Source: Escherichia coli
GTDB lineage: Bacteria; Pseudomonadota; Gammaproteobacteria; Enterobacterales; Enterobacteriaceae
NCBI RefSeq assembly: GCF_003334385.1
Contig: NZ_QOWN01000011.1
Reading direction: 5' to 3' (one strand)
Length of the DNA stretch: 64,000 nucleotides
Position numbers and translations under genes: made by a program. The notes beneath the pieces were generated by a model. The model made no database searches and was not told where the DNA came from. It saw nothing but the letters and a program-made list of their open reading frames with translations. Positions 21,490 through 21,656 of this stretch are shown piece after piece (the first letter of the stretch is position 1; each line of letters opens with the position of its first letter).

Positions 21490-21656
21490 CCACTCCTGCT
21501 ATGCTTAAGAAATTATTCATAGACTCTAAATAATTCGAGTTGCAGGAAGGCGGCAAACGAGTGAAGCCCCAGGAGCTTACATAAGTAAGTGACTGGGGTG
21601 AACGAATGCAGCCGCAGCACATGCAACTTGAAGTATGACGAGTATAGCAGGAGTGG
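21490..21656 (+). repeat. 13-bp perfect inverted repeat flanking the dxs-yajO intergenic segment; the right arm contains the yajO Shine-Dalgarno
   Basis: CCACTCCTGCTAT at 21490..21502 and ATAGCAGGAGTGG at 21644..21656; extendable to about 17 bp in RNA with G-U pairs. Confidence 0.5.

Follow-up and report, generated by a model that had tools for sequence, protein, structure and literature searches.

An ERIC element in the loop of a conserved anti-Shine-Dalgarno hairpin between dxs and yajO of Escherichia coli

Introduction

Hairpins that sequester a Shine-Dalgarno (SD) sequence within a polycistronic mRNA are known from the coat/replicase and lysis genes of phage MS2 and from the infC-rpmI-rplT operon of Escherichia coli. 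In these classic cases, the hairpin is melted by translation of the upstream gene, resulting in translational coupling. Here, we analyzed the region between dxs and yajO in a 64,000-nucleotide stretch of E. coli DNA (contig NZ_QOWN01000011.1 of RefSeq assembly GCF_003334385.1; from here on, the window), where the two arms of an inverted repeat flank an ERIC element. As in the classic cases, an anti-SD strand located just past the stop codon of the upstream gene pairs with the SD of the next gene, and the modeled hairpin should block independent initiation on yajO. Melting by upstream translation, however, is doubtful here, and the bypass that we propose is a promoter inside the anti-SD strand. 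Overall, we describe a member of a known repeat family that has inserted in an anti-SD hairpin of an ordinary kind, which appears not to have been described before and has a putative function in yajO expression.

Three other described systems are relevant to this locus. ERIC, also called IRU or RU-1, is a MITE, a miniature transposable element with inverted repeats, of 127 bp. The insert between dxs and yajO is similar to it in size, in having TA-flanked repeats, in forming a hairpin, in its intergenic and cotranscribed location, and in its variability between strains, while the likeness covers only the insert and not the arms. The Correia/NEMIS elements of Neisseria are alike in that a promoter arises at the junction of a MITE and that RNase III substrates are formed from the element upon transcription; however, they belong to another family. 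At dxs-yajO, the −10 element combines host sequence (the right arm) with the end of ERIC, and the reported double-stranded RNA (dsRNA) is a sense/antisense and not an intramolecular duplex. Finally, Adams et al. (2021; PMC7815308) described Rho-dependent premature termination that results from poor translation of leaders or early open reading frames (ORFs). yajO is one of the validated cases in that study and is given without a structural cause; that the anti-SD hairpin could be this cause is what we infer from the present analysis.

The two genes have a metabolic connection. YajO can supply 1-deoxy-D-xylulose 5-phosphate (DXP) independently of Dxs, as indicated by its RefSeq product name and by reviews on terpenoid production. 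Based on the ORF list and the RefSeq annotation of the identical K-12 sequence, dxs (620 encoded amino acids; 19619 to 21481, plus strand) ends with TAA at 21479 to 21481, and yajO, which encodes a 324-amino-acid aldo-keto reductase (21661 to 22635, plus strand), starts with ATG at 21661 to 21663.

Results

The sequence CCACTCCTGCTAT at 21490 to 21502 has its exact reverse complement, ATAGCAGGAGTGG, at 21644 to 21656, in agreement with a preliminary description of the window in which a 13-bp perfect inverted repeat was reported to bracket the dxs-yajO spacer. The left arm begins after 8 nt from the dxs stop codon, the right arm ends 4 nt before the yajO ATG, and in K-12-type sequences the arms are separated by 141 nt. 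Neither arm recurs elsewhere in the window when up to one mismatch is allowed. On the plus strand, the left arm is the anti-SD strand (CCACUCCUGCUAU; 21490 to 21502), as supported by sequence, fold, and alignment, while the right arm (AUAGCAGGAGUGG; 21644 to 21656), which we delimited by sequence and by alignment of alleles and paralogs, holds the yajO SD sequence AGGAG (21649 to 21653). Folding of 21480 to 21670 as RNA resulted in one long hairpin (−80.4 kcal/mol, z = −8.0), in which the arms form the outer stem of the minimum free energy (MFE) structure. If G-U pairs are included, the helix comprises 17 bp (21490 to 21506 with 21640 to 21656), as had been estimated, plus two pairs beyond a bulge, so that its left strand spans 21488 to 21506 in the MFE structure.

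The strain distribution of the sequence between the arms supports that it is an insertion. The full-length spacer is present in 2,844 of 5,426 complete E. coli genomes. In sampled strains lacking it, the locus is 125 bp shorter, and the arms are only 16 nt apart. Alignment of the K-12-like, O157, and APEC O1 alleles gave a clean presence/absence polymorphism, with empty-site alleles reading CCACTCCTGCTAT-GCTTAAGAAATTATTC-ATGGCAGGAGTGG. The inserted element, as defined by allele polymorphism, paralogs, and fold, spans 127 bp (21520 to 21646, not assigned to a strand) and consists of a 123-bp body (21522 to 21644) flanked by TA at 21520 to 21521 and at 21645 to 21646; the difference of 125 bp between filled and empty sites corresponds in length to this body plus one duplicated TA. 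To the left of the insertion, the filled allele retains a remnant of the ancestral loop, GCTTAAGAAATTATTCA (21503 to 21519, plus strand), as identified by aligning filled and empty alleles.

Several lines of evidence identify the insert as ERIC. Paralogous copies at yafP-rtcB, ybhJ-ybhI, and pgk-fbaA align over 21519 to 21646 with 92 to 94% identity, and none of the 5,426 complete E. coli genomes lacks the element, the median number of copies detectable by megablast being 6. The ends of the copy analyzed here read TA|GACTC...GAGTA|TA and those of the paralogs TA|TACTC...GAGTA|TA; thus, the copy differs by one substitution (G for T at 21522). In the conserved central inverted repeat, the ERIC2 primer used in polymerase chain reactions matches 21583 to 21604 with one mismatch, with 0 such matches expected by chance. 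Folded alone, the plus strand of the insert reaches −56 kcal/mol (z = −9.2). Published ERIC criteria include terminal inverted repeats of ~7 contiguous bp and 5′-TA-3′ at both termini (Delihas 2008). In its length, in its terminal repeats with TA at both ends, in the hairpin formed by its RNA, and in having positions that vary between strains, the insert at 21520 to 21646 agrees with the published ERIC/IRU description. With a central repeat, dispersed copies, and a stem-loop in place, and with an ambiguous TA target duplication as the one exception among the features compared, it is a member of the ERIC family.

Among Rfam families, none reached its gathering threshold at the locus. The V_AS5 family (RF02818) gave a full-length match (model positions 1 to 129) over 21519 to 21642 with an E value of 2.4e-10; at 52.5 bits, however, the match falls far short of the gathering score of 96, and we rejected the insert as a V_AS5 member. 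The match probably reflects an ERIC-like repeat in Vibrio and suggests that the Rfam family was built on such a repeat. We also noticed that in some strains, e.g., E. coli VTB97379v, the ERIC copy carries an additional hairpin-rich segment of 78 bp between window positions 21605 and 21606. This segment is found in 646 of the 5,426 E. coli genomes, usually once, with an identity of at least 99% in 121 of them and of 90 to 95% in 512; the latter copies are probably at another locus. The segment resembles internal ERIC insertions described in the older literature.

To compare the locus between genera, we collected orthologous junctions by two routes, i.e., a search for YajO homologs followed by contig look-ups, and a pattern scan of metagenomes that was anchored only in the flanking coding sequences and in which 108 of the 120 hits were chance matches that were removed using tblastn. 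This resulted in 21 distinct spacers from Escherichia, Citrobacter (four lineages), Salmonella, Scandinavium, and other (metagenomic) Enterobacteriaceae. The arms are 16 to 24 nt apart in all 19 spacers that are not of the E. coli type and in empty-site E. coli. The non-E. coli spacers are 56 to 60 nt long or similar, and none contains an ERIC insert; therefore, the empty state is ancestral. In these sequences, an anti-SD strand (YYRCUCCUG...) 8 to 11 nt past the dxs stop codon pairs with the yajO ribosome-binding site CAGGAGYGG, and the anti-SD:SD stem is part of the MFE structure of all 21 spacers, with energies of −19 to −31 kcal/mol. Both empty E. coli alleles form a single dominant hairpin (−28.1 and −25.8 kcal/mol) in which the SD is paired. 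AGGAG is paired in the MFE as well as in the centroid structures of the K-12 sequence, the O157 and APEC alleles, and the eight orthologs folded. In total, these comparisons support that the repeat is an ancestral local hairpin that is conserved across the genera sampled.

The comparative data also put the frequency of such repeats into perspective. Perfect inverted repeats that are 13 bp or longer and lie within 200 nt are found at only two loci in the window, while shuffled sequences contain 0.3 per window on average. A chance match had been considered very unlikely; the expected number is indeed low but is not overwhelming for a scan of the entire window, so that the statistic alone is suggestive rather than decisive, and it is the comparative data that show that the repeat is real.

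We next consider the variation within the stem. The 14-nt sequence CTCCTGCTATGCTT (21493 to 21506) and CAGGAG are unchanged in all 21 spacers, and RNAalifold returned a core of 9 bp. The six core pairs CUCCUG/CAGGAG are invariant and, because they never vary (half of the stem being the SD itself), they are uninformative for covariation. Outside this core, pair −1/+1 is AU in 4 spacers, GC in 7, GU in 8, and mismatched in 2; pair −2/+2 is CG in 17, UG in 3, and mismatched in 1; pair −3/+3 is CG in 16, UG in 3, UA in 1, and mismatched in 1; and pair −4/+4 is UA in 11, CG in 1, GC in 1, and unpaired in the rest. Across the alignment, 89.4% of cells are paired compared to 29 to 55% in controls with slid partners. 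Changes on both sides occurred at three pairs, and the observed covariation score was reached by 1 of 500 shuffles, with 6 of the 13 pairs invariant among 21 related sequences. The stretch at 21482 to 21496, as well as its equivalents in several of the other loci, is strongly C/U rich, nearly free of G, and contains extra CUCC motifs (e.g., TCCCTCCCCCCTTTCCGCTCC); it could provide alternative anti-SD registers or a Rho-loading (rut-like) patch.

The insertion junction explains the perfect 13-bp arms of the K-12-type sequence. In the right arm, ERIC ends with 21644, its flanking TA occupies 21645 to 21646, and 21647 to 21656 are native; the ERIC end happens to mimic the displaced loop base. Pairing of GAGU in the ERIC end with GCUU in the left strand makes the K-12 helix longer than its ancestral counterpart. 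Position 21646 is A in K-12-like genomes, G (resulting in a G-U wobble) in the filled alleles of ECOR29, 2015C-3163, EC10, and VTB97379v, and its equivalent is G in both empty E. coli alleles read (O157 and APEC O1). Because it depends on A21646, the perfect 13-mer is lineage specific. The K-12 allele has TA on both sides of the element, several filled alleles have TA...TG, and present-day empty alleles have TG at the site.

Two further polymorphisms were observed at the locus. One base upstream of the mapped sense 5′ end described below, 21509 is G or C (TTAAG/TTAAC), and this variant co-occurs with G21646 in filled ECOR29, 2015C-3163, EC10, and VTB97379v, as if there were two separate haplotypes with ERIC at this site. 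In KO11FL, a derivative of E. coli W, the equivalent of 21649 is changed from A to G (GCAGGAG to GCGGGAG), which converts a U-A stem pair to U-G and gives a weaker SD.

To estimate the effect of the left arm on SD accessibility, we calculated the cost of opening the region from the SD to the AUG. For the K-12, O157, and Salmonella alleles, the predicted cost is 15 to 26 kcal/mol with the left arm vs ~5 to 8 kcal/mol without it. Specifically, it amounts to 19.6 to 21.6 kcal/mol for K-12 RNA including the left arm and 7.2 kcal/mol for RNA starting at 21510, 23.9 to 25.7 vs 7.6 kcal/mol for O157, and 15.2 vs 4.6 kcal/mol for Salmonella. Together with the pairing seen in each of the 21 different orthologous spacers, some of it covarying, the increase in predicted opening cost supports the proposal that the left arm is an anti-SD for yajO.

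Three other functions of the stem were considered and rejected or found doubtful. No intrinsic terminator was identified on the plus strand in a scan of 21250 to 21800, and the hairpin itself does not qualify as one, as the stem is followed by CAGCAUGCAAUAC and has no U-tract. With −20 to −28 kcal/mol, the stem was judged far too stable to melt at physiological temperatures, arguing against an RNA thermometer. Classical coupling by a ribosome terminating on dxs appears doubtful because the stem, which begins 8 to 11 nt past the stop codon, is about at the edge of the footprint of such a ribosome.

The left arm also contains a candidate promoter element for yajO. The extended −10 element TGCTATGCT (21497 to 21505, plus strand) combines TGn with a −10 hexamer that has A at position 2 and T at position 6; this assignment is based on its invariance and on a transcription start site (TSS) 4 to 5 nt downstream. 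From TGCTATGCT, we had predicted a start near 21511 to 21513 before the TSS mapped by Romero et al. (2014) was found. In that study, class I TSSs are those that are enriched upon tobacco acid pyrophosphatase treatment and form the leading edge of transcription, and 728 E. coli sites qualify. One of these, RVS_(I)-437510 (NC_000913.2, 437509-437510), corresponds to window positions 21510/21511 on the plus strand based on a checked mapping of genome to window coordinates, and it is also the 5′ end of the 158-nt transcript "ecr0419" (21510 to 21668). In the upper part of the left strand, CTATGCTT shows no variation even though the bases opposite to it differ between clades, so that pairing cannot account for its conservation.

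Because the TSS at 21510/21511 is downstream of the left arm, yajO mRNA made from its own promoter lacks the anti-SD, which is present only on RNAs reading through from dxs or starting at 21489. The latter position is where the "yajO 5′ UTR" construct (UTR, untranslated region) of Adams et al. begins (primer JW10397, the insert of which starts with TCCACTCCTGCTATGCTTAAG). The extended −10-like sequence TGGCATAAT (21474 to 21482, plus strand), which overlaps the dxs stop codon, could, judged by its sequence, drive a start at 21489; this element is not conserved in the Scandinavium-like group, which has TGGCCTGAT. Using 5′ rapid amplification of cDNA ends (RACE) followed by sequencing, Kim et al. 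(2012) reported a yajO TSS with 19 reads at NC_000913.2 437453, i.e., at window position 21567 inside the ERIC hairpin; this 5′ end may represent a processing site rather than a start. Among the published ends, the best-supported yajO start is the one downstream of the left arm at 21510/21511. A consensus scan returned an additional promoter-like sequence, TTAAGA-18-AATAAT (21505 to 21534, plus strand), with the −35 element in the native loop and the −10 element in the left end of ERIC; as no mapped 5′ end fits it, it was rejected as a yajO promoter. The supplements of the Cappable-seq study have no entries near the locus, those of the Salmonella primary transcriptome do not list yajO and dxs, and our search returned no TSS or 3′-end data for an empty-site strain or another genus.

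Transcripts carrying the left arm are expected to arise upstream. The operon is listed as xseB-ispA-dxs-yajO and, because of this listing and because no intrinsic terminator was found on the plus strand, read-through from dxs is expected. The preliminary description had treated a yajO start downstream of the left arm, combined with a lack of read-through from dxs, as evidence against occlusion; such a start is present at 21510/21511, while read-through is still to be expected. Term-seq data (Adams et al. 2021) contain a strong 3′ end at 21661 on the plus strand, 5 nt past the right arm (NC_000913.3, 438135; score, 38,352), that is flagged as Rho associated (Rho score, 2.89; "Yes"). In the same study, a Rho termination region was mapped to 438058, i.e., window position 21738 within yajO, and a transcriptional fusion of yajO (5′ UTR and ORF) starting at 21489 was expressed at a >2-fold higher level in the rhoR66S mutant.

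In K-12-type strains, the right arm contributes to an antisense promoter. As inverted copies, both arms contain CTCCTGCTAT, which for the right arm is read at its beginning on the minus strand; joined to the ERIC end, this arm forms TGCTATACT (21641 to 21649, minus strand), which is a better extended −10 element than the sense one. A class I TSS on the minus strand, FWD_(I)-437386, corresponds to window position 21634, 6 nt past the TGCTATACT hexamer (Romero et al. 2014), and antisense 3′ ends were mapped by Term-seq to 21423 and 21420 (Adams et al. 2021). These ends define an antisense RNA of ~212 nt (21420 to 21634, minus strand) that overlaps ERIC, the left arm, and the 3′ end of dxs. In agreement with this, RNase III dsRNA captured using p19 forms cluster S-43 at 21441 to 21627; S-43 is the fourth most abundant among the clusters overlapping coding genes and was ascribed to an unannotated antisense RNA (Huang et al. 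2020). The minus-strand −10 hexamer is TATACT only in the filled A21646 allele, whereas it is CATACT in the other filled alleles with G21646 (TGCCATACT) and CATGAA in empty alleles (TGCCATGAA). Because the empty and the G21646 alleles lack TATACT, the strong antisense promoter is the product of the insertion and one base.

The second perfect inverted repeat in the window is located at 15191 to 15238 (ATCCCTTAATTGTGCAT...ATGCACAATTAAGGGAT) and has arms of 17 to 18 bp with a 12-nt spacer. It is directly upstream of a 303-amino-acid ORF (15281 to 16192), which, judged from size and position, is probably panE; no T-run follows the repeat on the plus strand.

Discussion

Here, we report that the two arms in the dxs-yajO spacer belong to an ancestral local hairpin that was split by an ERIC element in its loop. 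The insertion, the ancestral hairpin with its conservation, and the promoter motifs with their match to published 5′ and 3′ ends are direct observations. From these, we infer a translational block, a causal link to Rho, and a promoter-dependent bypass, and we consider it moderately probable that read-through transcripts are silenced by the hairpin, while transcripts from the yajO promoter bypass it. According to this explanation, the apical loop would have received the 123-bp ERIC body at a TA in the lineage to which K-12 belongs. As ERIC forms a fold of its own, closing of the original stem would still be possible, and this stem would now form the base of a composite hairpin of ~170 nt that is seen as the "long-range" repeat. 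On RNAs with the left arm, i.e., xseB-ispA-dxs read-through RNAs or those starting at 21489, the yajO SD would be buried and yajO would be poorly translated; poorly translated RNA would be subject to Rho-dependent termination in early yajO, and subsequent 3′ trimming back to the stable stem would generate the 3′ end at 21661, which would also cap the dxs message. Transcripts from 21510/21511, which do not contain the anti-SD, would have an open SD. The promoter of origin would, thus, decide whether yajO can be translated. In K-12-type strains, antisense RNA from TGCTATACT may, as a by-product, pair with the sense RNA to generate an RNase III substrate. A more far-reaching and tentative idea is that the 14-nt CTCCTGCTATGCTT has a dual role across the Enterobacteriaceae, acting in DNA as the extended −10 element of the yajO promoter and in RNA as the anti-SD, so that the origin of a transcript would choose between translation and Rho; we regard this as possible rather than probable.

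Several points weigh against this explanation. The published 5′ ends disagree (21489 in Adams et al., 21510/21511 in Romero et al., and 21567 in Kim et al.), and all transcript data come from ERIC-filled K-12 strains. The arms are conserved in 21 of 21 spacers, as anticipated in the preliminary description for a functional pairing, but the covariation is modest and, as related sequences can score better than shuffles without a structure, it is supportive and not conclusive. Moreover, much of the invariance seen in the left arm could be due to promoter function and not to pairing. The present-day empty allele reads TTCATGGCAGG and not TTCATAGCAGG, the sequence expected for a simple TA duplication, so that the insertion target and history given above are tentative. 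Finally, in the literature searched, we found no experiment comparing yajO translation with and without the left arm, or in compensatory mutants.

The two origins of the arms that had been put forward initially can be judged on the basis of the allele comparison. A purpose-built long-range helix that brackets the intergenic region and regulates yajO on read-through transcripts would be in line with the MFE fold of the K-12 sequence, in which the SD is buried; yet the 141-nt distance is created by a strain-polymorphic ERIC insertion in the loop of a local hairpin, the arms are 16 to 24 nt apart in the sampled E. coli strains without the insertion and in all other genera sampled, and the perfect 13-mer hinges on a single base of the K-12 lineage, A21646. 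We consider such a helix very improbable. An origin of the arms as terminal inverted repeats or as target duplication of a small inserted element is hardly credible. There is indeed an element, and 3 of the 13 bases of the right arm (21644 to 21646) are the ERIC end and TA, but this element lies between the arms and has terminal inverted repeats of its own, its ends are fixed by the three paralogs at 21520 and 21646, which places the left arm 18 to 30 nt outside, and the two arms are found next to each other in empty sites as well as in other genera.

The remaining alternatives accept the local hairpin or the promoters but assign the main role differently. The strong Rho-associated Term-seq 3′ end 5 nt beyond the stem, together with a stem that is very stable in all taxa and, having no U-tract, is not an intrinsic terminator, would also be expected if the hairpin is mainly a protective 3′ stem-loop of the xseB-ispA-dxs mRNA or a Rho end point, with the overlap with the SD being secondary. 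A stabilizer could use any sequence, however, while in 21 of 21 spacers the core that does not vary consists of exactly the SD and the sequence complementary to it. We find this alternative unlikely but worth keeping in mind; it is also compatible with a 3′ end that is a consequence of a translational block and, thus, not exclusive of the explanation that we favor. Conservation of the left arm only as the yajO promoter, with fortuitous complementarity to the SD and no role at the RNA level, is suggested by the invariance of TGCTATGCT, the class I TSS just downstream, and the free variation in the partners of CTATGCTT. Against this, CTCC upstream of the TG is invariant although no role for it is known in promoters of the extended −10 type, the flanking pairs covary (AU/GC/GU, CG/UG/UA, and UA/CG/GC) and lengthen the helix differently by clade, and a stable stem is kept in all 21 spacers, which makes this alternative improbable. 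Regulation by the antisense RNA from the ERIC junction, which in K-12-type strains would pair with the dxs 3′ end and the yajO 5′ region and trigger decay by RNase III with the helix being irrelevant, can draw on the class I TSS at 21634, the 3′ ends at 21420 and 21423, and the dsRNA cluster at 21441 to 21627. Because TATACT is limited to the filled A21646 allele, this mechanism leaves it unexplained why the arms are conserved across genera, and no phenotype or effect on a target has been reported; we rate it as quite improbable.

The apparent long-range helix can, thus, be broken down into two ordinary parts, i.e., a MITE insertion and a local anti-SD hairpin. More generally, palindromic repeats such as ERIC that have inserted into hairpin loops can mimic long-range structure, which calls for caution in scans that use only the sequence. 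The hairpin is conserved from Escherichia to Scandinavium-like genera, overlaps a promoter element, and is a candidate cause of the Rho-dependent attenuation of yajO. If CTCCTGCTATGCTT has the dual role considered above, this would account for three orphan observations in K-12, i.e., the Rho regulation of yajO, the transcript "ecr0419," and the dsRNA cluster S-43. The filled/empty and the A/G polymorphisms among natural E. coli isolates represent a ready-made allelic series, and gating of yajO next to dxs is of practical interest for isoprenoid engineering. With such a dual role of CTCCTGCTATGCTT, if true, the cell could uncouple the back-up DXP synthase YajO from dxs despite the fixed adjacency of the two genes.

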